A stretch of DNA of 64,000 nucleotides from an uncultured bacterium (lineage in GTDB: Bacteria; Eisenbacteria; RBG-16-71-46; CAIMUX01; WJJG01): the NCBI GenBank assembly GCA_964506245.1, contig CAZDKK010000018.1, forward strand, positions 973 through 64,972, given 5' to 3'. The notes below the pieces were generated by a model. The model worked only from the letters and a program-made list of their open reading frames with translations. It was not told the origin of the DNA and did not search any database. Shown here in pieces: positions 1,114 through 49,723 of this stretch (positions are counted from its first letter, which is position 1; each line of letters starts with the position of its first letter). The position numbers and the translations under genes were made by a program.

Positions 1114-1173
1114 GCGACCCGCGGCCGCGCGGGGAAACAGGTAGAGGAATCGAATCAGGAGGGAGGCCGTAAG

Positions 1174-2700
1174 ATGGCAGACAAGAAACCGAACATTCTC
1201 GTCCTGTATGGCGATGACATCGGCTGCTGGAACATCAGCTACAACAATCGCGGCCAGATGGGCTACCGGACACCGAACATCGACCGCATCGCCCAGGAGG
1301 GCATCGCGTTTACCGACTACTACGGGCAGCAGAGCTGCACGGCCGGCCGCGCTGCCTTCATCACCGGGCAGAATCCGATCCGCACGGGTCTGACGAAGGT
1401 CGGAGCGCCGGGACACAAGCTGGGCCTTATGGCGGAAGATCCAACGATCGCCGACCTGCTCAAGCCGCTGGGGTACGCGACCGCTCAGTTCGGCAAGAAC
1501 CACTTCGGAGACCTGAACGAGTACCTGCCCACCGTCCACGGGTTCGACGAGTTCTTCGGCAACCTCTACCACCTGAACGCGGAAGAGGAGCCCGAGGATC
1601 CGGACTACCCGAAGGACCCGAGGTATCGCCAGGCGATGGGCCCCCGCGGCGTGCTGCGCTGCTCCGCGACGGACCGGGACGATCCGACCGAGCAACCGCG
1701 TTGGGGCCGCGTGGGCAGGCAGAAGATCGAGGACACGGGCCCTCTGACCAAGAAGCGCATGGAGACCTGCGACGAGGAGTTCACCGAGGCGGCCCTCGAC
1801 TTCATCGACCGCGCCCACAAGGCGGGGAAGCCGTTCTTCGTCTGGTGGAACTCCACCGCGATGCACGTCTGGACCCACTGCGCCAAGAAGAACGAGGGGA
1901 AGAGTGGGCAGGGCTTCTACAATGACGTGATGGTGGCCCACGACGAGCTGGTCGGGAAGCTGCTGGCCAAGCTCGATGAGCTGGGCATCGCCGACAACAC
2001 CATCGTGGTCTACTCCACGGACAACGGCCCGCATTTCAACACGTGGCCGGACGCCGCGATCAGTCCCTTCCGCAGCGAGAAGAACACGAACTGGGAAGGC
2101 GGTTGGCGCGTGCCGGCGTTCGCGCGCTGGCCGGGCCACTTCAAGGCCGGCACCGTATTGAACGACATCGTCTGCCATCAGGATTGGCTGCCGACGCTGC
2201 TCGCGGCCGCGGGTGATCCTGAGATCAGTGCGAAGCTGCTGCAGGGCCACAAGGCCGGGGACAAGACGTTCAAGGTCCACATCGACGGCTACAACATGGT
2301 GCCGTATTTCTCGGGTCAGGCGAGGGAGAGCCCGAGGAAGTACTTCGCCTACGTGAACGACGACGGCCAGCTGGTGGCGATGCGCACGGGCGACTGGAAA
2401 GTCGTGTTCGACGAGCAGCGGGCGAAGCAGATGGCCTGCTGGTCCGATCCGTTCGTCCACCTGCGGCTGCCGAAGATCTTCCACCTGCGGCGGGATCCCT
2501 TCGAACGTGCCGACGAGAACTCCAATTCCTACTGGGACTGGGTGCTCAGCCACACGTTCATCATGGGGATGGCCGCGGCGGTCGTGACGACGCTGCTCAA
2601 GTCCCTGGGCGAGTTCCCGCCGCGGCAGAAGCCGGCAACCTTCAACTTGGACAGGGTCCTCGAGGAACTCCAGGAGGCCGCGGGAGGAAGACACCGCTAG
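1174..2700 (+). CDS. Arylsulfatase (formylglycine-type)
   Basis: KPNILVLYGDDIG, catalytic motif SCTAGRAAFITG (CxAxR), GKNHFGD, STDNG, EGGWRVP; RBS GGAGG upstream. Confidence 0.95.
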   Translation: MADKKPNILVLYGDDIGCWNISYNNRGQMGYRTPNIDRIAQEGIAFTDYYGQQSCTAGRAAFITGQNPIRTGLTKVGAPGHKLGLMAEDPTIADLLKPLGYATAQFGKNHFGDLNEYLPTVHGFDEFFGNLYHLNAEEEPEDPDYPKDPRYRQAMGPRGVLRCSATDRDDPTEQPRWGRVGRQKIEDTGPLTKKRMETCDEEFTEAALDFIDRAHKAGKPFFVWWNSTAMHVWTHCAKKNEGKSGQGFYNDVMVAHDELVGKLLAKLDELGIADNTIVVYSTDNGPHFNTWPDAAISPFRSEKNTNWEGGWRVPAFARWPGHFKAGTVLNDIVCHQDWLPTLLAAAGDPEISAKLLQGHKAGDKTFKVHIDGYNMVPYFSGQARESPRKYFAYVNDDGQLVAMRTGDWKVVFDEQRAKQMACWSDPFVHLRLPKIFHLRRDPFERADENSNSYWDWVLSHTFIMGMAAAVVTTLLKSLGEFPPRQKPATFNLDRVLEELQEAAGGRHR

Positions 2701-2718
2701 CGAACCGGAGGCCAGGAG

Positions 2719-3066
2719 ATGCACGAACTGGTCGCGATGGTGGCCGACGGCATCGAGGCTGTCGCCGTGGTGGTCATCGTGGGCGGTATCGTTTACGGTA
2801 TCGCCCGCTGTTTCATTGGCCGGGCCACGGAGCCAGGCCGGGCCTACAGGAATCTCAAGTTCCGGCTGGGGGCGTCCCTGTTGCTCGGTCTTGAGTTCCT
2901 GGTGGCCGGCGATATCATCCGCACGGTGGCGCTCAATCCAACGCTCGACAAGGTGGCGACCCTGGGCGTATTGATCGCCGTCCGCACGTTCCTCAGTTGG
3001 GCCCTGGTGGTGGAGATGGACGGACGCTGGCCGTGGCGGGCCAAAACCGAATCGGAGGGGAGGTGA
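2719..3066 (+). CDS. DUF1622-like small membrane protein
   Basis: LGASLLLGLEFLVAGDIIRTV...LGVLIAVRTFLSWAL..EMDGRWPW matches the DUF1622 pattern (from recall); RBS present. Confidence 0.8.
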   Translation: MHELVAMVADGIEAVAVVVIVGGIVYGIARCFIGRATEPGRAYRNLKFRLGASLLLGLEFLVAGDIIRTVALNPTLDKVATLGVLIAVRTFLSWALVVEMDGRWPWRAKTESEGR

Positions 3067-3072
3067 TCGCGT

Positions 3073-3468
3073 ACGGAAGAGCTGTTTTCCCGCTTCTTCG
3101 GGGATCTGCTGGGGCGGTTGAGCGGACCGATGCAGTTCCGTCTCGTCCTGCAGCCCGTGATGGCAGCCATCTTCGCCGTGCGTAGCGGGCTGAGAGATGC
3201 GCAGGGGGACAAGCCTCCCTATTTCTGGGCGATGTTCACGAACCCTGAGAGTCGCAAGGAGATGCTCCGCGACGGCTGGAAATCCGTCGGGCGCGTCTTC
3301 ATTTTCGGAATCGTCATGGATTCGATCTACCAGTTCATCGTCTTCCACCGCTTCTACCCCGTCGAGGCGCTCGTGGTCGCCGCCATACTGGCCATCATTC
3401 CCTACCTCTTGATCCGGGGCCCCGTGAACCGGCTCGCGCGAGGCAGGTCGAAGAGCACAGCCGCATGA
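3073..3468 (+). CDS. Conserved hypothetical membrane protein; probable start is ACG at 3073
   Basis: Protein-like frame EELFSRFFGDLLGRLSGPMQFRLVLQP begins right after a strong SD (GGAGGTGA, 3059-3066) and an ACG codon; about 3 hydrophobic segments. Confidence 0.65.
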   Translation, partial: TEELFSRFFGDLLGRLSGPMQFRLVLQPVMAAIFAVRSGLRDAQGDKPPYFWAMFTNPESRKEMLRDGWKSVGRVFIFGIVMDSIYQFIVFHRFYPVEALVVAAILAIIPYLLIRGPVNRLARGRSKSTAA

Positions 3469-3551
3469 GCACGAGAGGGAACGCGGTGCCCTTGCCGAGA
3501 CTCGCGGAGTGGCGGTTCCGCATAGCCGACGAGGAGGAGGCGTAGCGCTGC

Positions 3552-4679
3552 ATGCAAGCAGAAGGTCCCGCGCATGACGCCGGACGTGAAGCGATCACCC
3601 GGAGCGGGTATTGGCTGATCGTCATCTGGGCGGCGGCGATCCTGATTCTGTACATTGCGGTCGCGTTCTTGGGCGCGTCTCGTCTCCGGGAGTACGGCGC
3701 GCGAGCCAACAATCGGCTCCAGACCTTCCTCGCTGCGGCAACGGACGAGACCCCGGCCGCGCAACCGTCACCGGACACCTCGACCCCGGCGCCGGTGGCG
3801 GTCTACATCGGCGCGTATTTCAATCAGCTTCAAGATCTCTCCCTCGCGGGATCGAGCTGGAAGGTCGACTTCGACATCTGGTTCCGCTGGCACGGCGAGA
3901 CGGTGGATCCCGGCGAGCGTTTTCAGATCATCAACGGCGCGATCGAGTCGAAAGAGAAACGAGAGTCCTGCGTTCAGGGCGGGGAACGATATGAACGGTA
4001 TCGCGTACTGGCGCGGATCGTGACGCATTTCGACATGAGCCGAATGCCCTTCGGCGGCGGCGCGCTCGGCATTCAGATCGAGGACGGCAGAGACGGGGCC
4101 GATCGGTTGCGGTACGTCGCCGATGGCAGCGACATCGGCATCAATCCCGGCGCCGCCGCCCCCGGTTGGCGGATCGGGAAGGCCAAGGGCTACGTCACGA
4201 ACTATCGTTACCCGTCGCGCTTCGGCGACCCGCGGCTCGCGGAGGGGACATCGGACGTCCGTTCGCGGTACACGTTCGGCTTCTGGGGCGCCTCATCCGG
4301 CTGGGGTACATACACGAAGCTGTTTCAGACCCTCTTCCTGGCGGTCGCCATCGCGTTGATCGCCTTCTTCATCAAGCCGATTCACGTCGATCCGCGCTTT
4401 GGGCTCGGCATCGGCGCCGTCTTCGCAGCCGTCGGCAACAACATCTTCGCGGGGTTTTCGTTGCTGGGCGGGGAGGGCATCACACTCGCACAGATGGTCA
4501 ACGCCGTCGGGCTGATCACGATCTTCCTGACCATCATCCAGTCGGCAGTTTCGTTGTGGATCTTCGATTCCATGGGTCGCGAGCGCTTGTCCCGCGTCTT
4601 CGACCGCGTCTGCTTCGCGGCGTTTCTGGTTGGATACCTGGCTGTGAACCTTGCACTCCCGCTGGCGGCGGGGGGATGA
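3552..4679 (+). CDS. Prokaryotic pentameric ligand-gated ion channel (pLGIC/Pro-loop) homologue with extra N-terminal TM helix
   Basis: VYIGAYFNQL..L.....WKVDFDIWFRW (beta1-beta2), FDMSRMPF (Pro-loop), PGWRI, then four C-terminal hydrophobic helices incl. DPRFGLGIGAVFAAV (M2-like). Confidence 0.7.
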   Translation: MQAEGPAHDAGREAITRSGYWLIVIWAAAILILYIAVAFLGASRLREYGARANNRLQTFLAAATDETPAAQPSPDTSTPAPVAVYIGAYFNQLQDLSLAGSSWKVDFDIWFRWHGETVDPGERFQIINGAIESKEKRESCVQGGERYERYRVLARIVTHFDMSRMPFGGGALGIQIEDGRDGADRLRYVADGSDIGINPGAAAPGWRIGKAKGYVTNYRYPSRFGDPRLAEGTSDVRSRYTFGFWGASSGWGTYTKLFQTLFLAVAIALIAFFIKPIHVDPRFGLGIGAVFAAVGNNIFAGFSLLGGEGITLAQMVNAVGLITIFLTIIQSAVSLWIFDSMGRERLSRVFDRVCFAAFLVGYLAVNLALPLAAGG

Positions 4680-4830: not shown

Positions 4831-4875
4831 GTCGTGCGAACCGGGCGACGGTAACCCCTTTTCGGGAGGTTGGTC

Positions 4876-6537
4876 ATGGCATCTTGCCGGCGCGCGGCCC
4901 AGGGGCTCGGGCTCATCTTCACATTGGCGGTCAGCACCACGAGCGCGGCGCAGGCGGTCGACCTCGAGCCCGGTTGGCCGCAGGTCACGGGCTTCAGCGT
5001 GTCCCAGTCGGGCGTGGCGGCGCAGTTCGACACCGACCCGGAATGGGAGATCGGCATTGCCTCCCAGGACGGGTACGCCTACGTATTCAACCACGATGGC
5101 ACCATTCTCTCAGGCTGGCCGCGCTACATGGGGCCGGCCCTCTGGCCCGACCAGTACGCCTACTTCTGCTCCTCGCCCGCCGCGGTGGACCTCGATGAGG
5201 ACGGCCGGGACGAGCTCGTCGTCGGCAACTTCGACGGCCGGCTCTACGCCTTTCGCCGCGACGGCACCGCCATGCCCGGCTTCCCGGTCGCGCTCGCCTT
5301 CATGACCTTCTCGACCCCGGCCTGCGGCGACATCGACGGCGACGGCCGCCTCGAGATCGTGCTGGGCGACAACAATGGCTTCATCTATGCCTTCAACCAT
5401 GATGGCACGATCTGCTCCGGCTTCCCGTACTCGACGCCGTATGTGGTGCGCAATTCGGCAGCGCTGGGGGATCTCGACGGCGACGGGCTCGACGAGATCG
5501 CGATCACCGCGGACAACAGTTCCTACAACCTGGTGGTGCTGGACGGCAACGGCCAGATGATGCCGGGCTTCCCGCGGCTCATCGGCGTATCGGGGGCGGG
5601 CGCCTCGCCCAGCTTCGCAGATATCGACGCCGATGGCCGGCTCGACATCGTCATCGGGGCCCGCGATGGCACCCTCCACTGCCTGCGCGACGACGGCACC
5701 TACCTGCCCGGCTGGCCCATCGACGCCGGCTACTCGACCCACAGCTCGGCCGCGATCGCCAACCTCGACGCCGATCCCGAGCTGGAGTTCGTCCTCGGCA
5801 TGAACGACTCGCAGGTACGCGCCTACAACCACGACGCGACGCTGCTGCCCGGATGGCCGCAGGCGACCTCTTACTCGGTCTTCTCCTCGCCCTCCATCGG
5901 TGATCTGGACGGCGACGGTGCACTCGAGGTCGTGGTCGGAGAGAACACCGGCAAGGTCTACGCGTGGGAGATCGACGGCACACCGTTGCCCGGCTTCCCC
6001 CTCACCGACCCGACCTACACCATCTACTCCTCACCCCTGCTCGAGGATCTCGACCTCGACGGCCACCTCGAGCTGCTGGTGGGCTGCAATGACACGTGGA
6101 TCTACTGCTGGGATCTCGGGCCGGACACCTACAACCCGGACGGGTTGCCCTGGCCGAAGTGGCGCCGCCGCGCCGACAACGACGCGACCGTCCCGCTCAT
6201 CGACCCCGCATCGGTTCACGCGGCGGTCACCACGGGGCAGCGGCTCTCCGTCTGGCCCAATCCGATGTGCGCGACGGCGCACATCTCCTACCGACCGGCC
6301 GCACCTGGACCGGTAGTGCTGACCATCCACGACGCGCAGGGTCGTGCAGTGCGGCGGCTGGCGTCGGCCGCCACGGGGTGTGTGAGCGTGTCGACCGCCG
6401 GGGTGGCGGGCGCCGTCGCATCGCTCACCTGGGATGGGTGCGACGACCATGGTCGGTCCCTGCCCCACGGAATCTATCTGGTGCGCCTCCTGGCGGGGGA
6501 CGTGACGCAGACAGCGCGCGTGCTGGTGCTGCGGTAG
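4876..6537 (+). CDS. Secreted FG-GAP/VCBS repeat beta-propeller protein with C-terminal FlgD-Ig/T9SS-type-A-like domain
   Basis: Signal peptide; repeated SPA.(G/A)D(L/I)D.DG..EIV.G and GWP/GFP motifs; tail VWPNP...IHDAQGRAVRRL...WDGCDDHGRSLPHGIYLVRL...RVLVLR. Confidence 0.9.
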   Translation: MASCRRAAQGLGLIFTLAVSTTSAAQAVDLEPGWPQVTGFSVSQSGVAAQFDTDPEWEIGIASQDGYAYVFNHDGTILSGWPRYMGPALWPDQYAYFCSSPAAVDLDEDGRDELVVGNFDGRLYAFRRDGTAMPGFPVALAFMTFSTPACGDIDGDGRLEIVLGDNNGFIYAFNHDGTICSGFPYSTPYVVRNSAALGDLDGDGLDEIAITADNSSYNLVVLDGNGQMMPGFPRLIGVSGAGASPSFADIDADGRLDIVIGARDGTLHCLRDDGTYLPGWPIDAGYSTHSSAAIANLDADPELEFVLGMNDSQVRAYNHDATLLPGWPQATSYSVFSSPSIGDLDGDGALEVVVGENTGKVYAWEIDGTPLPGFPLTDPTYTIYSSPLLEDLDLDGHLELLVGCNDTWIYCWDLGPDTYNPDGLPWPKWRRRADNDATVPLIDPASVHAAVTTGQRLSVWPNPMCATAHISYRPAAPGPVVLTIHDAQGRAVRRLASAATGCVSVSTAGVAGAVASLTWDGCDDHGRSLPHGIYLVRLLAGDVTQTARVLVLR

Positions 6538-19066: not shown

Positions 19067-22000
19067 TTACCGCACGACCAGCACCCGCGCCGACCGCTCG
19101 ACGATCTCGTCCGCCGCGCGCACGCGAGCCCGCGCCAGGTAGATGCCGCTTGGGTTCGACCGGCCGCCGTCCCACGTGTAAGCGTGGACGCCCGGCCCCT
19201 CGCTCCCCTGCTGCAGCACCGCCACCCGCCGGCCGGAGAAGTCGAACAGGCTGAGCTCGACCTCGGCCGCCGCCGGCAGGTCCAGCCGCACCGCCGCGCG
19301 CCCATCGCCCAGGGGCCGCGCCGACAGCGCCACGCTCGTAGGCACCGGCGGCTCGGGCGTGATCGGGTCTACCGGGACGATCGGGTCGGCACCCGGGTCG
19401 GGATTCGGATCTTCCCCGATCCCCGGCTCCTCCACGCTGCTCATGTCGGTCACGATCTCGATCTCGACCCGGTCGGCGTAGTAGTGCGTGATGTAGGTCC
19501 CGCTCACGCCCGGCGCGCCCGTTTCCAGCGTGAACTCGCCGCTGCGCGAGCCGCAGTTCAGGATCGTGAACCGCTGCCCGGTCACCGGGGTGTAGCCGCC
19601 CGCCGGTCGCACGACCAGCCGCCCGGAGAGGCTCGCCTGCCCGCTCACCTGCAGGTGGTCGAACTGGCCCGCGGTCGTGCCGCCGATCTCGACCCAGTAG
19701 GTGCCGTCGGCCGTCTGGGCATAGTCGCCCTGGATCGCCAGAGACCCGGTGGAGTTGGCCGTGGCGCCGGGGGCCATCCCGCCGCCGCACGTGACGTTGC
19801 CCTGCACTGTGCCGATCCCGCTCAGCGTACCACCGTTCACCGTCGCCGGACCGGGTGTGACAATGAGCGTGCCGTTGACGCTCGTGCGGCCGTAGTCGGC
19901 CTCGTCGTTGCCTGTTTGCGTGAAGGCGCCGTTGACCGTCACGGTCGAGCCCGCGCCGATCGTCAACCGGCCGGAGTCGACGGCCAGGTCGCCGGACGTG
20001 GTCAGGCTCGGCCCCCCGGTGAGGGCCAGATCGCCGGCCGACTTGATCCTGTTAAGCGAGGCCAGCACCAGGGTCGTCCCGTCGTCGCTGTAGAGGTTCG
20101 CGCTCGGGCCCTCGAGCAGAACCCGCGCGTCGAGCTGCTGGATGTTCGCGCCGAGCAGGCGCATCGTGCTATTGGGCCGCACGAGCCACGCCCCTCCGGT
20201 CAGCGTCCCGGAGGCGTAGTTGTTGATCGTGCTCGAGGTCCGGAAGACGCTCCCGCCGGTCGCTTCCGCGGTGCCGTTGTTGGTGAGGGTGGTCTGGACT
20301 TCCAGTCTGGCTCCGTTCTGGGCTCGCATGGTCCCGTAGTTGAACTTCTCCTGGTTGTGCAGCAGGAGCGTGCGCCCCGCTACATCTGCCAGGACCGTGC
20401 CGTAGTTCCGGAGATAGACCCCCACGACGCCGTCGCCGCGAATCGTGTGGCTGGCTGTTTGCGTGACCGACGCGTAGTAGTCTTCGAGCCGCGCGTCCCA
20501 CACATCCCCGGTGGTCTGCAGGACGATCTGACCGCTGCCGTCGAGCGTCTGACCATAGCCCGTGGCATAGAAGTAGGTATCGTCGCCGGTGTGATCCGAG
20601 TTGATCGTGACCGTCCCATTGTTCGTGAAGGAACACGTCATGAATACCTGCTGGCCCGCGTGGATATCCAGGCGTCCTTGATTCGTCACGTGGTCGAGGT
20701 ACGTGCCGCTGTAGCATTCCACCGCGCCGCCAGCCGCCGTCGCGAGGCTTCCCCCGTACACCCAGGTGCGAAGCAGCACCCGGCCCCCGTCGGCCAGCAG
20801 GAGGCCCGGCGCCTCCTGGTTGACCGGGTTGACGACGTTGAGCACGCCTCCCCCGGTTGCCTTGCACGTGGCATAGTTGTACAGGTTCTCGCACTGTAGC
20901 TGGAGCGTGCGGCCGTTGACGTCGGCGCTCACCAGGCCGTGGTTCCAGAGGTAGACGGTCACAACCCCCTCGCCGTGGATGGTGTGCCCCGCGCTTTGGA
21001 TCAGCGTGCCGTAGTACCCCTGGAGCCGCGCGTCCCAGATGTCGCTGCCTGACGTCTGCAGCAGAATGTCGCCGCTGCCCTGCAGATTGTGGCTGTAGCT
21101 GCTGACATAGAGGATGGCGTCGTTCCCGCTGGCCTCCGAGTTGACGGTGATCCGTTCGTTGTTTGTCGTCGTCGCACCCTGCAGCCAGAGCTGGCCTCCA
21201 CCGGCGATGGCGACCGGGCCCTGGTTCGTGACGTTGCGCAGCGTGCAGCCTCCTTGCAGGACGCGCAGGCGTCCGGCCTGAGTGCCATCCGCGAACGTCG
21301 TCCCGTTGTAGCAGTCGATCGTGCTCGTGCCGGTCGTCTCGAGCCGGCCGCCGGTCACCTCGCTCGCCAGCCGCACCGTGCCGCCGTCGGCCAGGATGCG
21401 CCCGGCAGCCCCCTGGGCGACCGGGGCGGTCACGTCGAGCGTGCCGCCGCCCACCGCCTGAAAGATCGCCTGGTTGTCCTTGCTGTCCTGGTAGATCCCC
21501 AGCGTGCGGCCGCTGACGTCGGCGCTGACCAGCCCGTAGTTGTTTAGGGTGATACCGACGACGCCCTCGCCGTGGATGGTGTGGCCAGCAGTTTGAACCA
21601 ATCTGCCATAGTAGGACGGCAGCCGGGCGTCCCAGATGTCGCCCCCGGAGGTCTGCAGGCGGATGTCGCCGCTGCCGTTGAGCGCCAGTCCGTAGTTCGC
21701 CACGTACAGGCAGGCGTCGTCGCCGCTCTGCTCCGGGTTGACCCAGATCGTCCCGTCGTTGGTGATTGCACTGCCGCACAGGAACGCCTGCTGCCCCGCT
21801 GGGACATGGAGCCGGCCCAGGGTGGTGATGTCATACAGCTGGCAGCCGGCCTGGCCCTCGATCACACCGTTGTGGTCCGAGTCGAAGGTGCCACCGGTGA
21901 CCGTGCCGCCATAGATGCGCACGATCCCCCCGTCGGCCAGGATGAGACCACTGCTGCCCTGGTTGACGGTGATGCCGTCCAGCCGCAGGATCCCGTTGTT

Positions 22001-22795
22001 GGTGGCGGCGAAAACACCGTTGTTGGTCTGCGTCTCATACGCGAGCGCCAGAACATGCCCGCTGTCGTCGGCGTCGATCCGCCCGGCATTGTGGGTGTCC
22101 AGCGTGATCCGGCCCGACCCGCGGATCGTGTGATCGGCCCCCTGGTACAGGGAGCCATAGTAGGGGGCGAGGTACGCCTCTTCCGGGTTGCCGTCGGTCT
22201 GAAGCACCAGCTCGCCCGGACCATCCAGCGCGCAGCCGTACCCCGAGATGTAGAGCCTGGCCGACCCGGTGCTCGGAAGCGAACCGACCCGAATCACGCC
22301 GCTATTGTGGGTACTGCCATTGGTGTAATACCAAACGTTGGTGGGCACGAGCAGCTGCCCCGTGGAGGCAAGCGTGAGCGCCCCCGCCAGGTACGCGTTG
22401 TGTCCCGCTAGGATCGTACCGCTGCTGTGCAGCCCCGCCGGTTGGTAGAGGTCCATGCGCCGATTGCCCAGGTTGAGCGTCGCCGCCACGTTGTTCTGGT
22501 CCAGCTGGTCGAAGCCCGCGTCGCTGTCGAGCGTGATCGTGTAGGCGCCCGATCCCGCAGGGATGATCGCGCTTTCCCCACTCTCGTTTGGAACGTCCTG
22601 CGGGTCCCAGTTGGAGGCGCTCCACCAGTTGCCCCCGCCCGGGTTGACCCAGGTGATGGTCTCGGCGCGAGATCCCCCCGTGCTGGTCACGAGCATCAGA
22701 CAGAGAATCGAGAGCGCCTGCGACCGCAGCGCGTCCCTCGTCCCCCGCCTCGCGTCCGTCCCGCTCCGCTCACTCGCCTTCGTGCAAGGGTGCAT
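19067..22795 (-). CDS. Large secreted beta-helix/autotransporter-passenger-like repeat protein with FlgD-Ig/T9SS-like C-terminal domain
   Basis: SD AAGGAGG; long signal peptide; [18 protein letters not shown]; four long internal repeats (D.WDARL..YY..(L/V).Q.A.HTI.G.GVV); acidic Pro-rich linker; tail [12 protein letters not shown]...WDGG...SGIYLAR...RVLVVR. Confidence 0.85.
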
Positions 22796-22906
22796 GTTGT
22801 CCTCCTTCGCTCACAGCGGGATGGCTCCCGCCCTGAATTCCTCTGCACCGGCCCTCGGGTGGCGGCCTACAGCACCTGCGCTGTCCGGCGCCACGCTTCG
22901 TCGGAC

Positions 22907-22940
22907 AGGATACGGAGGGAGCGTTACGCGAGCGTTACGC
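22907..22940 (-). promoter_or_regulatory. Perfect 11-bp tandem direct repeat over a putative -35 region
   Basis: GAGCGTTACGC x2 (22919-22940); minus-strand TATCCT (-10-like) at 22912-22907. Confidence 0.35.
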
Positions 22941-23170
22941 GGCGCCAGCCGCACCAGCCCCGGCGGGCGGAGATGCGGGCCGGCCACCGCGTCGGGGTTC
23001 TCACGCGCGACCCGTCGCAGGCTCGGGACGGGGGTTCCGCGCATCCGAACTGCGCCGTAAGCGATCCAGTTGGGGGAAAGCACGAGGGGTGCCTGCTGCG
23101 CCGGCGGCCCGCTCGCGAAGCGCGGCCTTGGGTCCCAGCGCAGGGTGCGCGGGCAAGGACTGGGGCAGCC

Positions 23171-24406
23171 TCAGCGGGGCTGGACGAGCACCGGGGGCGC
23201 GACGGCCGAGTCGCCTGCAGTGGATCGCGCCGAGTCGCCTGCGGCGGCCCCCGCCGAGTCGGGCGCCAGCGGAGCTCCCGGCTGCCCGCCGCCCGTCTCG
23301 CGCTGCCGCTGCGCCTGCATCAGGCGAAATCTCTCCATCCGTTCCTGGCGCTTCCTCTCGAGCATGGCATCGACCGCGCGCCGGCTGGCCTCGGTCGTGG
23401 CGGCCACCACGGCGGCCACGTGCGGGTCCTCGGGCCAGCTCGGATCCAGCGCCGGGGCCTGCCCGCTGAAGTCGACGATCTCGTTGCCGGGCGACACCAC
23501 CAGGTTCGTGACCGCGACCGCCACGCCGCGATCCCCCGAGCGATTCACGACGGCCCGGCCGAACTTGACCGGTTGCTCGTCGCGGTCCTGATGCGTGCCC
23601 GCCAGGATGACATCGATCTCGGGAATCGAGTCGGCGAAGGTCTGGATACTCACGTCGTCGAGGTGGCCGATCAGGACGAGGATGTCGGCCCTTTCCCGGG
23701 CCAGCCGCTTCGCCTCCGCCTCGTGGAGCACTCGCGCGGCCGGCGCCAGTTGCGCACCGGTGCCCTTCAGGAGCCGAGCCACCTCCCGCGTGGTCGCGAT
23801 CGGCGGCAGCACGCGCACCGCGCCCTGTGCTTCCCGCAACGCGGCGGTCGTGTTGCGCCCTTCGTCCAGGACGCTGAGGAAGCCGACGCGCACGCCGTCC
23901 ACCTCCACCACCCGGCAACGCGCGCCGACGGGCTTCCAATCCTCACCCGCGCGCCGCTCGACGTTGGTGGTGACGAGCGGCAGGGTCGATCCGAGCCCCA
24001 GCAGGCTGTCGGTCAGGGTCCACTCGGCAACCTCGTACTCGCCAAGGGCCACCGCGTCGTAGTTCAGGCGCTCCATTTCACGCCAGACCGCAACGCTCTC
24101 CCGCCACCGGACCGAACGCGTGGGGTGGAAGAATCCGCCGCCGTCGACCAGGAGGATGCGGCCCAGCGCGACGCGCTGGCTGTCGATGAAGGCGGCCCGC
24201 CGGGCCAGCCCACCCTTCTTGCCGTGTCAGCCGCAGGGGACGATCTCGCCCTGGAAGCAGCTCTGCGAGAGGATGTGGAGCGTGACGTTGTCCGCGCGCG
24301 GGACGCGCCCGTCCCCGCCCGACCGCAGCGCGCACCCGGCCAGCAGGGCGAGCATCGCCGCGGCCGCCGTGCGCATCCGCGCAGTGCAAGGCGCGGGGGC
24401 GCTCAT
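23171..24406 (-). CDS. UshA/5'-nucleotidase-fold (seleno)lipoprotein B; in-frame TGA at 24229-24227 read as Sec (C-G-U)
   Basis: ATG overlaps the upstream TGA; lipobox LAG-C; SQSCFQGEIVPCG*HGKKGGLARRAAFID..RILLVDGG continues in frame into ORF 23171..24076; 411 aa if read through. Confidence 0.85.
24179..24229 (-). other. Putative bacterial SECIS element (paralogue B)
   Basis: UGA followed by hairpin GAAGG..GGCCC-GGC-GGGCC..CCUUC; 51 nt identical to 25186-25236. Confidence 0.75.
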
Positions 24407-25464
24407 CACTGCTCCGACCCGGGCCGCTCGCGGCGTTGATTGCGCTCCCGGACCCGTCGCTCCCCCTCCGCCTTGGCCGACTCGGCCGCTTGCGCAACGG
24501 CCGCATCCTCGGCGTACTCGGGAACGAGCGTGAAGTTGAGGCCACCGAAATCGACGATCTGCCCCTCGGGGGAGATGATCAGGCGCGTCACCGAGACCAC
24601 CTGGCCGCGCGAACCGGACCGGTTGAGGATCGCGTCGCCGGCAGGCACCGGGCCGGTGTCCGCGGCCGTCATGTGCCCGCCCAGGATCACGTCCACGTCG
24701 GGCAGGAGCGACGCGTACTGCTCCATGGCCTGCGGATCGAGGTGTGCCAACAGCACGAGGACGTCGGTGCGTCCCCGGACCTCGGCCACCGCTTCCCGCA
24801 GGCTCTCTTCTGGCGGCAGCAGGCGGACGCGGTCGCCCGTGCTCCGGATCACGGTGGGGCTGAGTTGAGTGGGGCCAATCACGCCGAGGATGCCAACCCG
24901 GATCCCGTTGATCTCGATCAGCCGGTACCGTTCGCCCAGCTGCTGCCATTGGCCGTCGCGCAGCACCTCGACGTTGGTGCAGACCACCGGCAGGGGCGTG
25001 TGACGCATGAGGCTGTCGACGGTCTCCCACTGGCCGAATTCCAGCTCGCCCAGGGTCACCGCCTGATAGCCCGTGCGCACCATCTCGTTCCAGGTCAGAA
25101 CGCTCTCGAGGTAGTTGTCCCGGGCGTTGCGGTGGAGGAAGTCTCCCCCATCCACCAGGAGCAGCGGCCTCCCCTTGACCCGCGCGCTGTCGATGAAGGC
25201 GGCCCGCCGGGCCAGCCCACCCTTCTTGCCGTGTCACCCGCAGGGGACGACTTCACCCTGGAAGCAGCTCTGAGACGCGATGTACAGCTCGACGTTGGTG
25301 GGTCGCAGGCCCGAATCGACGCTCGGGCGCGCCCCCGAACCCGCGCAGCCGCCGAGCAGGAGCACGGCTGCCGAGACCGCGAGCAGGACCGCCCCGGCGC
25401 AGCCGCCCACGAGCAGCGCCCCGGCCCCCCGGCGAACCGGGCCCAGGAACCTGTGCATCTTCAT
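24406..25464 (-). CDS. UshA/5'-nucleotidase-fold (seleno)lipoprotein A; in-frame TGA at 25236-25234 read as Sec (C-G-U)
   Basis: SD GGAGGGGG; lipobox LGG-C; SQSCFQGEVVPCG*HGKKGGLARRAAFID..PLLLVDGGDF continues in frame into ORF 24406..25155; 352 aa if read through. Confidence 0.88.
25186..25236 (-). other. Putative bacterial SECIS element (paralogue A)
   Basis: TGACACGGCAAGAAGGGTGGGCTGGCCCGGCGGGCCGCCTTCATCGACAGC; G-rich apical loop starts about 25 nt after UGA. Confidence 0.75.
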
Positions 25465-25519
25465 GCTCTCCCCCTCCGGCAAGGAGCCTCCGATCGAGCC
25501 ACGGTCGCCTCGAGGCGCA

Positions 25520-27673
25520 TCACAGGTGGGTTGGACCTGGCGGCGCCCCGATGCTCTGCAGCATGCTGTCGATCACGGCCACCCGATCGGGACGCGACGC
25601 CTCCACGCGCCTGGCCTGCAGAAGAGTCTCGCGTGCGCGATCGTTCTCGCCCCGCTCGAAGAGCAGCCTGCCCAGCACGAACTGGACATCGGGGCTGTTT
25701 GGATCAATCGCCGCCGCCCGCGACAGCGTCGCGATGGCGCCATCGATGTCCTCCCCCTGCAGGTGCCAGATCCCGAGGTTGTAGAGCACCTTCGGGCTCT
25801 CGGGATCCAGTTCGACCGCTCGCTTGAAGTACGGTCCGGCTTCTTCGTGCTGCTTGTGGCGGCCGTAGATGATGCCCAGGGCGAGGAGCCCGGCAACGTT
25901 CGTCTCGTCGATTTCGAGCAGGCGCTTCAGGCAATCCTGCGCTCCGGCCGTGTCGTTCAACGCCTCCATGATCCAGGCCAACTCGTACAGCGCGGTCACC
26001 GCATGCGCCTGGAACTCGAGGATCGCCTCCGCATGGCGCCGGGCTCCCTCCAGGTCGCCCGCCGCCCGCTTGATGCGGCATAGGTAGAACTGGGCCTCTT
26101 CCTGCTCCGGATCGACCGCCACGCAGCGCTCGAAGTACTGCTGGGCGATGCGCGGATCCATCTTGAGCTGGAGCTGGGCCTTCCCCAAGTTGATCAGGGC
26201 CGCCGCATTGTCGGGATCGGCTAGGAGCACCTGTTCCAGCAGGCGTACGCCGTCGGTGGAATAGCCCATCCGCAGGTTCTCGGTCGCCACGCCGATCTGG
26301 TCGAACAGGTAGCGCATCTCGTGTGGATCGTTGAGACTTTGCACATCCTCGAGCGCCGAGGACACGCGGCTGACGCCGCGCCGCGCGCTTGCGAGGTACC
26401 CCAGCGAGGCCAGTTTCTGCAGGGTCTCGTTGTCCGCGGCGGCGACCGAGGCGCTCGCGTCCTCCGATGTCCAGCGCCGCATGGTCTCCGCGAGCTCCTC
26501 GGTGAGCCGTTCCACGGCCGCGGGCTCGCGTGCAGCCAGATCGTAGAGCTCTCCGGGATCCTCACCGACGCGGTAGTAGCGCGGCTTCGGCCCGTGGATG
26601 ATCTTCTCGTCCCCCAGGCGCAGGGCGCGCAGCGCTCCCCAACCGCACTGCAACTCGCCCACGAGCGATTCCATGTAGAGAGCCCGCGGGGCGCTCGCGA
26701 CCTGTTCGCCTCGGACCAGCGGGGCCAGCGACCGGCCCTGCACATCAGATGGGATCTCGATCCCGAGCAGGTCGAGAACCGTCGGCATGATGTCGACGGT
26801 GCCGGACAACTCCTCCAGGCGGAGACCGGCGGGCCCACCCGGCAGGCGGAAGATCAGCGGCACGCGCATGACGCTGTCGAAAACCAGCAGCGAGTGGGTG
26901 GGCTCGCCGTGCTCCATGAGCCCCTCGCCGTGGTCGGCCACGATGACGATGAGCGTGCGATCGTAGAGCTTCTGCTTCTTCAACTCGGCGAAGACGTGAC
27001 CGAGCTGTTCGTCGACGAAGGCGATCTCACCCGCGTAGGGCTCCGTGAACCGGCTGTGGTAAGGCTCGGGCGGGTTCACGGGCTGATGCGGATCGAAGTA
27101 GTGGAGCCACAGGAAGAAGGGCGCGGATCTCGACTTCCTGAGCCAATTCAGCGCGGAGCGGGTGACCAGGTTGGCCTTGCGTTCCTCGAATCCGAACTCG
27201 TTGGCTGCCCGCGTCTCTAGTTCGTCCCGCGACCAGCCCTCCGCGAGGTTGTCGTCATAGGTCGTGAATCCCTGATCGAGGTTGAAGCGTGAATCGAGCA
27301 CGAAGGCTCCGACCACCGCTCCGGTGTCATAGCCGGCGTCCTTCATGACCTCGGCCAGGGTCGTGACGTCCTCGCGCACGACGTAGGTGGAGTTGTCGCG
27401 CACGCCGTGGAAGATCGGGTAGGTCCCGGTCAGGATCGAGGTGTGAGACGGCAGGGTGATGGGATTGGTGCAGAAGGCCTTCTGGAAGAGCGCGCCCTCG
27501 GCCGCCAGCGCATCGATGTTGGGGGACGTGGGCTCGGCGTAGCCATAGCAGCCGAGTCGATCGGCGCGGGCGGTATCGATGGTCACCAACAGAACGTTCC
27601 ACCGGTCCTCGCGCGCGCAGCCGCATGCGAGGAGGAGCGCCAGGGCGGCGAGCGGTAGGCGGGAGCACTTCAT
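25520..27673 (-). CDS. Sulfatase-like hydrolase/transferase lipoprotein with C-terminal TPR repeats
   Basis: Lipobox LAC/ACG-C; NVLLVTIDTARADRLGCYG, PITLPSHTSILTG, FLWLHYFDPH, ADHGEGL.EHGE.TH; TPR-like helical repeats; ATGA overlap with the upstream gene. Confidence 0.9.
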   Translation of the reverse strand: MKCSRLPLAALALLLACGCAREDRWNVLLVTIDTARADRLGCYGYAEPTSPNIDALAAEGALFQKAFCTNPITLPSHTSILTGTYPIFHGVRDNSTYVVREDVTTLAEVMKDAGYDTGAVVGAFVLDSRFNLDQGFTTYDDNLAEGWSRDELETRAANEFGFEERKANLVTRSALNWLRKSRSAPFFLWLHYFDPHQPVNPPEPYHSRFTEPYAGEIAFVDEQLGHVFAELKKQKLYDRTLIVIVADHGEGLMEHGEPTHSLLVFDSVMRVPLIFRLPGGPAGLRLEELSGTVDIMPTVLDLLGIEIPSDVQGRSLAPLVRGEQVASAPRALYMESLVGELQCGWGALRALRLGDEKIIHGPKPRYYRVGEDPGELYDLAAREPAAVERLTEELAETMRRWTSEDASASVAAADNETLQKLASLGYLASARRGVSRVSSALEDVQSLNDPHEMRYLFDQIGVATENLRMGYSTDGVRLLEQVLLADPDNAAALINLGKAQLQLKMDPRIAQQYFERCVAVDPEQEEAQFYLCRIKRAAGDLEGARRHAEAILEFQAHAVTALYELAWIMEALNDTAGAQDCLKRLLEIDETNVAGLLALGIIYGRHKQHEEAGPYFKRAVELDPESPKVLYNLGIWHLQGEDIDGAIATLSRAAAIDPNSPDVQFVLGRLLFERGENDRARETLLQARRVEASRPDRVAVIDSMLQSIGAPPGPTHL

Positions 27674-29457
27674 CGGCTGCCAGCCTCCTGTCCGATCGGC
27701 GGCAGGTGGTCCTCGTAGATCTTGAGAGCGATGGACTCCAGAACCTTCTGCCGGATCTCGTTGGTCATCGTCTGGTAGTTGCGGCGCGCGTAGTTTTGGC
27801 GGACAAGTTCCTCGACCTCCTCGAAGGTCTTCTGTACGGGCGGCGTGTCCTTGATGAGCCGGACGATGATGATGCCCACATCCATGTAGCACAGACGCTC
27901 GGGATCGTAGACCTCGGCCATCTGGGCGTCCGCAACCTCCCCCTCCTTCAGCTTGTTGAGGATGGCGTGAAACCAGGGTCGCGGTGCCACGAGCCGGGTG
28001 ACGTCTTGGTTGTTGAGTCCCTCCATGCGGCCACCGTTGCTCGCGGAGTAGTGCTTGGAGTAGGTGCGCGCCAGCTCGGCAAAGTCCTCGCCGGCGCGAA
28101 TGCGGTCCACCAGGGCCTCGCCGCGCCGCAGGGTGCGCCAGAGAGGCTCACCCCCCTCCGGCTTCAGCAGGATCACGTCGAGATCCCGCGTGCGCAGGGT
28201 CTGGTAGCGCTGCTCGTTCTGCGCGAAGTACTCCCTGATCTCCTCTTCCGGAACCTCCGCGACGGCGCGCTGCAGACGCTCATCGAGAGCCCGCTGGTAG
28301 TTCACCTCGCGGACCGCTGCCTCGATCTGGACGGCCACGTCGGGGCGGTCCTGAAGGCCGAGTCGCTTGGCCTCCAGGGTCAGAAGCTGGCCCAGGGTGA
28401 CCTGGTCCAGGAACTTGTAGATGTTGGTGAAGACGTGCGCGTACAGATGCGACAGCTCGTGCTCACCCAGCGCGCTGCTCAGATCCTGGAGGGTGTAGCG
28501 CTGCCCCTCGATCGAGATGAGGGTCTCGTCACGCGGGATGAAAGGATCCTCCAGACGCTCGTAGTGCCGCTCGAGGCCGTGGCGGGGACCCACCTCCTCG
28601 ACGAATGCGCGCTGAGCCGCCGCGAGCTTGTCCGCATTCGCCCGGCGGCGGGCGAACTCGACCACGTCCTCGAACTTGCGGTCGAGGGCCGGCAAGCGCT
28701 CCATCATCTTGGCGATCTGGAAGCCGGTGGGGGTCTCGATGATGCCGCTGACCTCGTGGCGCTTGAGGTTCCAGACCCCCTTGATGAAGGAAGGGTGCAC
28801 GTCGTCCGTTGCGGCGAGTGTCAGCCACCCCCCGGAATTCGCGGTGGAGGACTGGGAGTGCTGGCGGGCCATCTCCTCGAAATCCGCCCCCTGCATGATC
28901 TGGCGGCGAAGCTCCTCGAGCCTCTGGCGCACCTTCTGCCGTTCGGGTTCGGGGACCGCCCCAACTTCAGCCCGCAGGAAGATGTACTGCACCCGCACCT
29001 TCTCAGGGTCCTTGTACTGCTCCGGATGCGAGTCGTACTGCTGGCGGATCTCCTCGGCGGTCGAGGCGATCTGGTCCCAGCCCAGCTCGTGCGTCATGGC
29101 CGTCTTCAGCACACCTGCCTCCGCCTGATTCAGGGCGGGCAGCATCGTGGGGTCTTCTTTCGGCGAGGGAGCCTCAGCGGCCAGGGCCTTGCGAATGGCG
29201 ATCTCCCGTATGTTCTCTATGCGCCAGTCGGCAGTGCCGCTCTCAGCCGGCGTGGGCCCTTGCCCGGCCGGGCCCGGCTGCGCTTGCTCCTTGGGGCGCT
29301 TGAAGGCGTCGAACTCGGCGCGGCGGACCTCGCCTTTCCGGAATGTGGCCAGAACCTGCGGATCCTTGGATGCGGCCGGCCTTCCGTCGCCGCCACATCC
29401 CATGCCCAAGGCCGGGCCGATGAGGAGAAGCCAGAGCCATGCGCCGGAACGCCGCAT
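27670..29457 (-). CDS. SurA/PrsA-like parvulin peptidyl-prolyl isomerase lipoprotein (two rotamase domains)
   Basis: Lipobox-like LGMG-C; VRVQYIFL...GADFEEMARQHS..STANSGGWL and GEDFAELARTYS..SASNGG; IIETPTGFQIAK. Confidence 0.85.
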   Translation of the reverse strand: MRRSGAWLWLLLIGPALGMGCGGDGRPAASKDPQVLATFRKGEVRRAEFDAFKRPKEQAQPGPAGQGPTPAESGTADWRIENIREIAIRKALAAEAPSPKEDPTMLPALNQAEAGVLKTAMTHELGWDQIASTAEEIRQQYDSHPEQYKDPEKVRVQYIFLRAEVGAVPEPERQKVRQRLEELRRQIMQGADFEEMARQHSQSSTANSGGWLTLAATDDVHPSFIKGVWNLKRHEVSGIIETPTGFQIAKMMERLPALDRKFEDVVEFARRRANADKLAAAQRAFVEEVGPRHGLERHYERLEDPFIPRDETLISIEGQRYTLQDLSSALGEHELSHLYAHVFTNIYKFLDQVTLGQLLTLEAKRLGLQDRPDVAVQIEAAVREVNYQRALDERLQRAVAEVPEEEIREYFAQNEQRYQTLRTRDLDVILLKPEGGEPLWRTLRRGEALVDRIRAGEDFAELARTYSKHYSASNGGRMEGLNNQDVTRLVAPRPWFHAILNKLKEGEVADAQMAEVYDPERLCYMDVGIIIVRLIKDTPPVQKTFEEVEELVRQNYARRNYQTMTNEIRQKVLESIALKIYEDHLPPIGQEAGSR

Positions 29458-45810: not shown

Positions 45811-48066
45811 ATGAACGAACATCGAGCAGGCAGGGCACACCGTTTGACTGTGCATATTCAAGCCATGACGCGGCCCCGGGTGACCCCTCTTGGGGGCCAG
45901 GGATCTGGGCGAGCGCGTCCCGCGCGAGGCCTGTCACCTGGTCAACATGCGGTACCAGCCTTCGTCCCCGTCTGGCTGGGGACGTTCCTCGTCTGGTTGG
46001 GGTGGGCATGCCCTGCCGTCGCCACGACAACCATCCCATGCGGCGACGAAGCCACGTTGATCGTGAACGGCGATGGAACGGCGAGTGTTCGTACGGGGCA
46101 CGATGGACCGGGACTCGAGATGGCAGGTTGGTCACTCGATACGGATCAGGGAACCATCCGTCTGGCTGACCTCGTCCCCAGCGTCGCGGCGGAGGAGAGG
46201 ACCGACAGCTCGATCGTCCGGATCCTGGCGGGGGGCGAGCGGGTCGCCGTGGCTCTGACCTACACCGCCTTCCCCGCGAGACGGGAGCTGCGTATAGCGC
46301 TCGAGGTCGATTACCTGCAGTCGTGCGAACTTACGCGTGGCGGTCTGGACGTCGAATTCGATCCAGCTTTGGTGCTCTACCGAGGCCCGCACGCGATCGT
46401 CTGCCGCGACGCTGCCCGCAACCAGCAGCAGACGCTCTACACACAACGAGCGATTCTGGCGGTAGACCAGGCCCGCGGCCGCGCGTTCTGCGTGCACGGG
46501 CTGCACCATGGGGCACTCGGGGTAGAACTGCTCTCGGAAGACGGCTTCCTCTTCTACGATGGCGAAGCTCACTGCACCGTGTTGAGGCGACCGACCTACG
46601 AGGAGGTCGGGGAGCACCGCTCGACCCGCCGGGAGGCCGGCGCGCACGATGTGATGAAGGTGCTTCTGGCACTGGACCCCGATCGGCCCACCGCCTGGAT
46701 CAACACCTTCCCCGGCGCCTGCCCGGCGGCCTTCACCCTGGTCGACGACGCCGACGGCGAAAGGCGCGAGCTGCTGCTGGCCGCCTACTACGGGGCGTCC
46801 GACACGGCAAGCGCTGGTTTCCGTCGGGGTGGTCTGTTGGGCCACGGCCTCGAGACGACACGCACGATCTTCGCCAACTCCCGGCTATACGACGTCTGGG
46901 ACCGCTTGCAGGCTGATGGCGTGGAGATCGCTCTGCACACGCCGACTGGCCAGGCAGACTCTGCGGGTCTGACCGCCGAGTGTCTGGCGGAGCTTGTACC
47001 CCGTTACCGAATCCGCCAGTGGGTCGACCATGCCGTCTCGGGCAACCCGGAGGACCTCAACTTCCGCGGCAGCTACCCGCCGGACGATAATCCCTTCTAC
47101 GTCCTGGATCTGCTGGAGGAGTACCACTTTGATTACGCGTGGGTGGAAGGCAACATGTTCCGCGGCTTCGACGCCTTCCGCGATCGCCGTGAGCTTCCGC
47201 ACCACCTCGACGCCGTCGATGATCCAGGGGTGCCGGGGCAGTTGCTCGTCTACGGTCGGGGTGGTGGCGTCTTCTTTGAGAACTACTGGAGCTGTATGCG
47301 GGATGTCGTGACACCCCCCGCATTGGAGGAGCTGACGCTCACGGCCGGCCTGGCGGTTCTCTACACACACATGTGCCTCGTGCGGTACCATGGCGCGGAC
47401 GTGGGGTACCTCGAGCAGGATGGAGACACGTGGGTGGTCAAGCCGGAGGCAGAGGAGCTTCTCTCGCTATTGGAGCAGCGCAAGGATGCGGGGGAGCTCT
47501 GGGTCGCTCCGGCTGCCACGATCTTCGATCGGTTGCGGGCCATCGACTCGCTGGTTCTGACAGACTTGGGGGATCTCCCTGACGGCCGCGCAGCAATGCG
47601 CTTGTCGAATAGAGGGGCGCTCCCCCTCGAGGATTTGGGCGTCTACCTGCAGAATTGCACTTCGATTTCGATTGGCGGTCGGCCGGTCACACCGACCGAT
47701 GGGGGATGGATCACTGTCCCAAGGTTGGATGCCGGGGCTGAGATCCTGATCGAAGCTCGGCCACTATTTCCGGCCGGGGCCGTAGGTCGCATCGTAGCTC
47801 TGCCCAATCCGTGCCGGGGAGCTTCCGGGTTGTACTTCGAGCTCTCTCCCGACGAGGCCGATGGGACCGAACTGGAGGTCCAGATCCAGGACTGCCTCGG
47901 ACGGGTACTATGGGGGGGCAGTCCCCACGAGGTCGGCCCGGGCCGATTCCGGGTCGAGTGGGACGGACGCGATGCTCGCGGTCGGCCCGTCCCGTCGGGG
48001 CGCTACTGGGCCCACCTGCTCCCGACGACCCGGTCGCGAATCGCCGCGATCATGCTGGTACGTTGA
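45811..48066 (+). CDS. Secreted protein with polysaccharide-deacetylase/glycoside-hydrolase-like barrel and FlgD-Ig/T9SS-like C-terminal domain
   Basis: Signal segment ending CPAVA; FTLVDDADG, GVEIALHT, WVDHA, LAVLYTHM; tail LPNPC...IQDCLGRVL...WDGRDARGRPVPSGRYW...IMLVR; start may be 45865 or later. Confidence 0.7.
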   Translation: MNEHRAGRAHRLTVHIQAMTRPRVTPLGGQGSGRARPARGLSPGQHAVPAFVPVWLGTFLVWLGWACPAVATTTIPCGDEATLIVNGDGTASVRTGHDGPGLEMAGWSLDTDQGTIRLADLVPSVAAEERTDSSIVRILAGGERVAVALTYTAFPARRELRIALEVDYLQSCELTRGGLDVEFDPALVLYRGPHAIVCRDAARNQQQTLYTQRAILAVDQARGRAFCVHGLHHGALGVELLSEDGFLFYDGEAHCTVLRRPTYEEVGEHRSTRREAGAHDVMKVLLALDPDRPTAWINTFPGACPAAFTLVDDADGERRELLLAAYYGASDTASAGFRRGGLLGHGLETTRTIFANSRLYDVWDRLQADGVEIALHTPTGQADSAGLTAECLAELVPRYRIRQWVDHAVSGNPEDLNFRGSYPPDDNPFYVLDLLEEYHFDYAWVEGNMFRGFDAFRDRRELPHHLDAVDDPGVPGQLLVYGRGGGVFFENYWSCMRDVVTPPALEELTLTAGLAVLYTHMCLVRYHGADVGYLEQDGDTWVVKPEAEELLSLLEQRKDAGELWVAPAATIFDRLRAIDSLVLTDLGDLPDGRAAMRLSNRGALPLEDLGVYLQNCTSISIGGRPVTPTDGGWITVPRLDAGAEILIEARPLFPAGAVGRIVALPNPCRGASGLYFELSPDEADGTELEVQIQDCLGRVLWGGSPHEVGPGRFRVEWDGRDARGRPVPSGRYWAHLLPTTRSRIAAIMLVR

Positions 48067-48150
48067 GAAACAGGCTCCGCTGGCAGAGGGCCCGTGTAGC
48101 AGGAATCGGCGCCCTGGGAACGGCAAAAAGGGCCATGGAGCCGTAACGCC

Positions 48151-49644: not shown

Positions 49645-49723
49645 TCTTGTGGAGTCGACTTGCGACCGATTGGCAGTGTGGCTGCGTGCTATCGTGACAG
49701 GAAGTCCATGGGGTATTTCGGGA

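Follow-up and report, generated by a model that had tools for sequence, protein, structure and literature searches.

Two adjacent genes in the 64,000-nucleotide (nt) stretch of contig CAZDKK010000018.1 analysed here (the window), which derives from an uncultured bacterium of the Eisenbacteria lineage, most probably encode selenocysteine (Sec)-containing proteins by recoding of UGA; we put the probability of this reading at about 0.85. The pair, hereafter gene A and gene B, lies on the minus strand at 23171-25464, a stretch that extends from the stop of gene B through the ATG of gene A. Sec insertion had been proposed for these genes in an initial annotation of the window, and it agrees with the two main results of our analysis: the interrupting TGA is conserved in a coding context, and a hairpin resembling a bacterial Sec insertion sequence (SECIS) follows it.

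Gene A (24406..25464, minus) has a read-through coding sequence of 352 codons, from the ATG at 25464 to the TGA stop at 24408-24406. Its in-frame UGA at 25234..25236 (minus), read as Sec, would be residue 77 within the motif P-C-G-U-H-G. Gene B (23171..24406, minus) runs from the ATG at 24406 (alternative ATG at 24376) to the TGA stop at 23173-23171, and its in-frame UGA at 24227..24229 (minus) is likewise read as selenocysteine. There is one in-frame TGA per gene, and on the minus strand both are found within ...SQSCFQGE(V/I)VPCG-TGA-HGKKGGLARRAAFID. Translation of 25464-24406 gave MKMHRF...LLLGGC...NVELYIASQSCFQGEVVPCG-TGA-HGKKGGLARRAAFIDS... for gene A, and the frame of gene B, read over 24409-23171, was MSAPAP...MLALLAGC...NVTLHILSQSCFQGEIVPCG-TGA-HGKKGGLARRAAFIDS..., so that the peptides and the in-frame TGA quoted in the initial annotation were reproduced exactly. 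The splitting into a leader and a headless piece that it had described was also present in the mechanical list of open reading frames (ORFs), in which gene A appeared as an 82-amino-acid (aa) leader ORF (25234..25482) and a 249-aa headless ORF (24406..25155), and gene B as a 301-aa headless ORF (23171..24076). The G+C content at third codon positions (GC3) was 0.85-0.92 on either side of the TGA of gene A. Compared with gene A, gene B has an insertion of ~30 aa and a low-complexity tail. A Shine-Dalgarno-like run, GGAGGGGGAG, closely precedes the ATG of gene A, and the stop of gene A overlaps the ATG of gene B (TGATG), through which the two genes, probably co-transcribed, may be translationally coupled. 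Opposite the pair, two ORFs of 670 and 463 aa on the plus strand (22427-24439 and 24436-25827) failed a GC3-based coding filter and were set aside as apparent GC-rich shadow ORFs; they yield mirrored tblastn matches in the related loci.

The read-through sequence was used for a protein search, and DNA of relatives was then taken from genome and metagenome collections. In these DNA sequences, the codon in question was TGA in 24 further homologues from 17 other contigs, a recurrence well outside what chance would give. Twenty-three of these, from 16 loci, had the flanks ...SQSCFxGExxPCG and HGxxGGLARRA, and the 24th (L013) was located at a contig edge. With genes A and B included, the clade had TGA at the Sec column in 26 of 26 genes and in 24 of 24 distinct sequences, and a replacement of Sec by Cys was never seen within it. 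A neighbor-joining tree placed every TGA form in one clade, in which the B type of the window, together with L001b, L005b, L008b and L014, was an old paralogue, and the other second copies had arisen separately from it. The orthologues of gene A in L001 and L008 were 75-76% identical, those of the B type were found in L001, L005, L008 and L014, and the TGA with both of its flanks was still conserved among clade proteins down to about 42-50% identity. The tandem arrangement, which had already been pointed out for the window, was itself kept in nine other loci. The source names of P0010, P0016, L002 and L007 point to Candidatus Eisenbacteria.

The 24 codons 5' of the TGA showed synonymous variation while their peptide was conserved (GAA 12 times versus GAG 11 times, TGC 17 versus TGT 7, and four different Arg codons at one site). 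Such normal variation under a conserved peptide indicates that this part is translated in frame with the part downstream. TGA is also the commonest ordinary stop in the window, where it ends 18 of 31 genes, A and B among them, and hence the genetic code has not been reassigned. A scan of the window and the related loci for other in-frame TGAs with a coding signal on both sides found none and recovered only members of this family. Given this conservation and the coding flanks, a pseudogene, split genes and a reassigned code are all poor explanations for the interrupted frames.

The 51 nt from the TGA onward were 100% identical between genes A and B, whereas the columns of the whole DNA alignment averaged 74% identity. 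For 23 distinct sequences, RNAalifold gave as a consensus a single hairpin 16-40 nt after the UGA, GGGC[U]GGCCC-G(G/U)(C/A)-GGGCC(G/A)CCU, comprising nine pairs, a U bulging from the 5' strand and, at the apex, a triloop whose first base is invariably G; the loop occupies +29 to +31, about 26-28 nt after the UGA. In gene A the hairpin lies at 25197..25218 (minus) and reads GGGC[U]GGCCC-GGC-GGGCCGCCU, and the hairpin of gene B at 24190..24211 (minus) is identical in sequence. Across the alignment, 99.5% of the hairpin cells were paired, versus 44-65% when the 3' partners were slid. Pair 31-46 was C-G in 17 sequences, U-A in 4 and U-G in 2, and in the U-A cases a synonymous change at Leu was matched by a change from Ala to Thr. 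Besides this pair, the hairpin varied only at the two loop positions after the invariant G.

Since the hairpin stretch also encodes G-L-A-R-R-A-A, part of the conserved GGLARRAA, codon choice was measured at conserved residues with four- or six-fold degenerate codons. The mean codon entropy was 0.40 bit at codons +1 to +12 versus 1.38 bit at 43 sites elsewhere (Mann-Whitney p = 3.6e-6), and the Gly at +6 was GGG in 24 of 24 sequences while GGC dominates elsewhere. The synonymous sites in the hairpin are thus almost frozen. Two controls support a role as SECIS. In the Cys form L018, GGLARRA is encoded as GGA GGT CTC GCG CGA CGG GCG, from which the stem cannot form, and in L035 and L039, which carry a Sec family with the motif C-R-A-U, a similar GCC CGG CGG GUC hairpin is located at the same place (GCCCGGCGGG, GCCCGGCGGGUC).

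Bacterial SECIS elements such as that of fdhF have a bulged U, a loop with G first and a similar spacing after the UGA. The element of Escherichia coli fdhF resembles ours in being a hairpin 3' of the UGA, with a U bulging from the 5' strand and an apical loop starting with G, and both have UGA-CAC-GGC (U-H-G), whether by coincidence or not. The upper stem has 5 bp and a triloop in genes A and B versus 3 bp and a tetraloop in E. coli, and our loop is ~6 nt farther from the UGA. We suggest that the hairpin acts as a bacterial SECIS, which would recruit SelB carrying Sec-tRNA, and that the single in-frame UGA of each mRNA would be recoded in this way to give a full-length lipoprotein.

Relatives outside the clade have Cys at the position of the presumed Sec. 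The protein search found 21 close homologues, all N-truncated and starting at or just after GGLARR; like the genes of the window, they are annotated as N-truncated "5'-nucleotidase" or as hypothetical proteins. In an exhaustive profile search the best 8 matches were again N-truncated, and the first full-length Cys form was P0152 at rank 10 (E = 5e-62). Each full-length Cys form is one undivided protein. At the Sec column, the Cys that the initial annotation had expected in related proteins was found as PCGC in P0022 (EPCGCTG, with a C-terminal cytochrome), as NCGC in L018, as a CGC-like motif in the P0152 type, as TCGC in L024, which also has CxxCH repeats, and as PC[DV]C in L045, L046 and L086. 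Many representatives from the profile search had [DT]CGCH, for example P0163, which is itself a lipoprotein, P0174, P0179 and P0185. Homologues with neither Cys nor TGA at this column had been named as evidence that would speak against Sec; clearly, the clade has TGA there and the distant relatives have Cys.

Further genes of this kind may have gone unrecognised. A group of relatives of ~385 aa (P0156, P0160, P0162, P0164-P0166 and P0171) has annotated N-termini right after the GGLARR position (MIDSL..., MDTLK...), which looks like the signature of additional Sec-split genes in another subfamily. At L035:5812-6852 and L039:1119-2285, in a low-GC organism, a distinct UshA-like gene is interrupted by TGA in ...YLDPCRA-TGA-GGKEIGGMARR and thus has the spacing C-x-x-U. 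These C-R-A-U genes are probably of the 'family 2' type described by NCBIfam model NF049981.

The 275 residues that follow the UGA were modelled with AlphaFold2 (AF2), at a pLDDT of 87. The best Foldseek matches of this model were 5'-nucleotidases and SoxB, in their N-terminal domain, with a TM-score of about 0.77 when normalised to the query and about 0.4 when normalised to the targets of ~500 residues. A profile search of the PDB agreed with this, matching 5'-nucleotidases at E = 1e-25. The UshA- or 5'-nucleotidase-like fold proposed in the initial annotation was therefore borne out. Among NCBIfam models, the two proteins matched the UshA-like models, SoxB, UshA and NadN, the best being NF041198 (UshA_like_PCGU). 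Pfam Metallophos reached 21 bits in protein A, with a cutoff of 21.5, and did not match protein B. In both proteins the motif DxH is replaced by SQSCFQGE...PCGUHG and GNHE by G-E-x-E, GE(L/Y)E; the aspartate of GD varies and is replaced by Gly in gene B, and only type A retains the two later histidines. The elements that do not vary in the Sec clade or in P0022 are P-C-G-[U/C]-x-G and GGLARR. The C-terminal, substrate-binding 5'-nucleotidase domain (PF02872) is absent from both A and B. With motifs I and III and this domain missing, we rejected a canonical nucleotidase function, and such an activity is unlikely for either protein.

Both proteins begin with a predicted signal peptide. In gene A it spans 25345..25464 (minus) and ends in the lipobox L-G-G-C (LLLGGC), with Cys40 located 37 residues before Sec; in gene B it spans 24332..24406 (minus), with the lipobox L-A-G-C (LLAGC). 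These assignments are matches to the pattern [LVI][ASTG][GAS]C only, and by the same kind of match a credible lipobox Cys precedes Sec by 31-37 residues in 21 of 25 tabulated homologues. Neither protein contains a CxxCH motif, in line with the earlier description of the pair as two lipoproteins that lack a cytochrome fusion. Sister families, in comparison, fuse the domain to a multihaem cytochrome c (P0022 and L024).

We suggest that the product of each gene is an exported lipoprotein whose scaffold is the calcineurin-like N-terminal domain known from the 5'-nucleotidase/SoxB family. Its Sec would lie after strand beta-1 and before the GGLARR helix, in the invariant loop P-C-G-U-H-G, at the place where ordinary members have the DxH metal-binding motif. 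Because the ligands typical of phosphoesterases have either disappeared or become variable, the catalytic centre may be Cys-Gly-Sec(-His) and, rather than a dimetal nucleotide hydrolase, the protein would have a redox-active selenenylsulfide that acts on a periplasmic substrate. We favour this chemistry because the C-G-U(-H) loop is the sole universally conserved feature and is positioned at metal site 1, and because the fusion of sister families to multihaem cytochrome c points to electron transfer at the CxC/CxU centre. We would nevertheless give a periplasmic Cys-Gly-Sec selenenylsulfide centre only about an even chance. Since the tandem pair is conserved and its translation is probably coupled, A and B may function jointly; they could form a heterodimer, of which B would be the more degenerate subunit.

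It is also conceivable that Sec is inserted but serves as a metal ligand. In that case the C-G-U-H loop would replace metal site 1 and bind a soft metal together with the retained ligands of site 2, and the enzyme would be a hydrolase in the manner of SoxB, acting for example on a sulfur- or selenium-oxyanion adduct. Type A keeps equivalents of the UshA ligands D84, H217 and H252 and has Glu for N116 (VDGGD, LLAH, GGH, LGE); SoxB ranks high among the structural matches and second among the NCBIfam models; and an invariant His directly follows Sec. However, the Sec clade as a whole does not conserve these ligands. In gene B, the GD aspartate is Gly and the GGH histidine is missing, each of L017, L010a, L003b and L002b is without one or more ligands, and P0022 is without most of them. 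Only PCG[U/C]xG and GGLARR are invariant everywhere, and the SoxB model scored 54 bits versus a cutoff of 550. On balance we consider a metal-ligand role unlikely, and clearly less so than the two explanations that dispense with Sec altogether.

One of these holds that the TGAs are genuine stops, leaving either two pseudogenes or, at each locus, a small lipopeptide and a separately initiated cytoplasmic enzyme. The N-truncated annotation of all 21 database homologues would fit it, and in some relatives the Leu codon of GGLARR is TTG, which gene callers use as a start. However, the TGA and both of its flanks are conserved over 26 genes, and neither a start codon nor a ribosome-binding site is conserved 3' of the TGA; the TTG of some relatives is CTG in the window. 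Strand beta-1 and the signal peptide would both be missing from the headless product, since the part before the TGA appears to provide them; the strand was located from canonical 5'-nucleotidase relatives, in which it precedes GGxARR. On the grounds of conservation, the missing restart codon and the upstream beta-1 and signal peptide, pseudogenes and pairs of separate ORFs were rejected. The single-protein state of the full-length Cys forms is also contrary to this explanation, to which we give almost no credence. The other is that UGA is read through without selenium, either by a near-cognate tRNA (Trp or Cys) or after a lineage-specific reassignment. Genes of the Sec machinery were not observed in the window, and the hairpin could in principle stimulate such read-through. 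However, reassignment was rejected because TGA is the main stop, terminating genes A and B themselves; the scan of the window and the related loci found no other in-frame UGA; homologues with Cys in place of Sec are the classic signature of Cys/Sec exchange; and the hairpin has the bulged U, the G-first loop and the spacing of bacterial SECIS elements such as that of fdhF. Read-through without selenium thus seems to us very improbable.

Several results weigh against Sec insertion or against the redox centre that we propose. The folding energy of the hairpin was no better than that of shuffled sequences (z from -0.33 to +0.49, in a sequence of 69% GC), its covariation amounts to one pair and probably two events, and most of its positions are also constrained by the conserved peptide. 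Rfam gave no match at gathering thresholds over the whole window and has no model with which the hairpin could be scored; at E <= 10, only chance-level miRNA and snoRNA matches occurred around genes A and B. In the 64-kb window, a tRNA scan and Pfam and NCBIfam searches of ~35 genes found no selA, selB, selD or tRNA-Sec, and the 17 related loci scanned contained no tRNA genes at all; this is the main reservation about Sec recoding. Sec was placed relative to the former metal site by sequence alignment only, and the type-A proteins retain four ligands equivalent to metal site 2, which leaves room for a metal-dependent mechanism. Finally, the window pair shares no conserved neighbours with the other loci, and thus its surroundings give no hint of the substrate.

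In 10 other loci, a gene for a DUF362 cytoplasmic protein with an inserted 2x[4Fe-4S] ferredoxin motif is located directly upstream on the same strand, at a distance of 66-366 nt (L001:7923-9365, L002:8049-9497, L008:4274-5458, L010:3079-4233, L017:4523-5764, L012:1863-3005, L007:7250-8779, L005:7213-9357, L003:7191-8264 and L006:1162-2241, all on the plus strand). A DUF362 homologue was not found anywhere in the 64-kb window. In L039, the C-R-A-U gene is followed by a gene for an HdrD-like protein with CCG and 4Fe-4S motifs (2292-3620). These Fe-S neighbours are weak hints at redox biology.

In the window itself, the 5' neighbour of gene A is a co-directional gene for a sulfatase and tetratricopeptide repeat (TPR) protein (25520-27892, minus), which ends 55 nt from gene A. 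It is one of three sulfatase-family genes, the others lying within 1-2700 (plus); its sulfatase is fused to a long TPR region, and it is not conserved beside the loci of the relatives. The downstream neighbour of gene B encodes a 1242-aa secreted repeat protein with a FlgD-Ig-like C-terminal domain (19067-22795, minus). Three more large secreted proteins of the window have this domain: an FG-GAP propeller protein (4855-6537, plus), an unassigned one (45811-48066, plus) and one with CotH kinase and malectin domains (49472-52381, plus). The domain recurs near related loci (L008 1256-4180, L018 3-986) and may serve in protein sorting specific to the lineage. The window also encodes two radical SAM proteins of the B12-binding type, at 48100-49644 (plus) and 59510-62446 (plus), the latter being a fusion of TIGR03960 and TIGR03936 (673 bits). 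At the end of the window (63433-63999, minus) there is a partial gene for the Spo11-like subunit A of DNA topoisomerase VI (274 bits to NF003337). This enzyme is typical of archaea and uncommon in bacteria.

The annotated products of A- and B-type genes are without a signal peptide and the probable active site; neither curated NCBIfam model recovers them, and a new family model would correct them for the whole clade. If the Sec machinery is confirmed, the use of selenocysteine would extend to the candidate phylum Eisenbacteria; the literature that we searched contained nothing linking Eisenbacteria with selenium, selenoproteins or the UshA-like family. A known hydrolase scaffold with decayed metal ligands and an invariant Cys-x-Sec-His loop lends itself well to the question of why Sec cannot be dispensed with, and the A/B clade offers a route to the role of the UshA-like family, which has been uncharacterised since 2008. 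More tentatively, and with the odds somewhat against it, genes A and B may represent a third UshA-like family that is obligately Sec, specific to the Eisenbacteria type and kept as tandem paralogues, in which the dimetal site has been rebuilt into a Cys-Gly-Sec-His centre and the SECIS lies within the most conserved peptide motif. If this is true, it would be a periplasmic selenoenzyme with a redox or Sec-ligated metal chemistry not yet described for this fold.

That UshA-like selenoproteins had been reported, as stated in the initial annotation, is correct both for the literature and for NCBIfam. A selenoprotein family 'COG0737, UshA-like, CxU' has been listed since the Global Ocean Sampling (GOS) survey of 2008 (PMC2398784), and UshA-like selenoproteins appear in recent reviews with the models NF041198 and NF049981 (PMC9312934, PMC13188914). 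The COG0737 family of the GOS and Sargasso data (Zhang & Gladyshev, PMC2398784) shows homology to UshA and 5'-nucleotidases, the CxU motif and both Sec and Cys forms, as do the genes here. It is defined loosely by a COG match and the motif, and genes A and B, with their homology to these enzymes and their C-G-U motif, are placed in this broad kind.

The classical enzymes of this fold, namely SoxB (TIGR04486; PDB 2WDC and 4UWQ), UshA and CD73 (1USH, 2Z1A and 4H2I), share the N-terminal calcineurin-like domain and the GGxAR helix, and they are periplasmic or extracellular, as is predicted for A and B. In contrast to them, A and B have no DxH or GNH, no C-terminal substrate-binding domain, and Sec or Cys in place of metal ligands. 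The scores are accordingly low: 53.6 bits for A and 38.5 bits for B with the SoxB model TIGR04486 (cutoff 550), and 25 bits with the UshA model (cutoff 600).

The closest model is NF041198 (PCGU type; 'UshA-like protein, CxU' in PMC13188914), which gave the best match with 99.4 bits for A and 79.5 bits for B. It has in common with them P-C-G-[U/C] followed by GGLARR, the N-terminal 5'-nucleotidase-like domain and the interchange of Sec and Cys. However, both scores fall far short of its cutoff of 275 bits, and only model positions ~23-271 of 519 were matched. Positions ~348-517 represent a multihaem cytochrome c region that is absent from A and B; P0022, in comparison, matches 348-517 and carries PF13435. 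Unlike NF041198, A and B are predicted lipoproteins in a tandem pair. NF049981 (UshA-like selenoprotein family 2; CxxU in PMC13188914) is, like A and B, a stand-alone domain without cytochrome, and the genes of L035 and L039, which are probably of this type, have Sec just upstream of GG(M/L)ARR and a hairpin similar to that of A and B. However, its spacing is C-x-x-U instead of C-x-U, and A and B reached 35.2 and 38 bits versus a cutoff of 140, in the N-terminal motif region only. Judged from these comparisons, genes A and B appear to belong to the known UshA-like kind of selenoproteins but to form a distinct, Eisenbacteria-type branch that NCBIfam does not model, being apparently lipid-anchored, tandemly duplicated, obligately Sec and free of a cytochrome domain, and falling outside both curated models.

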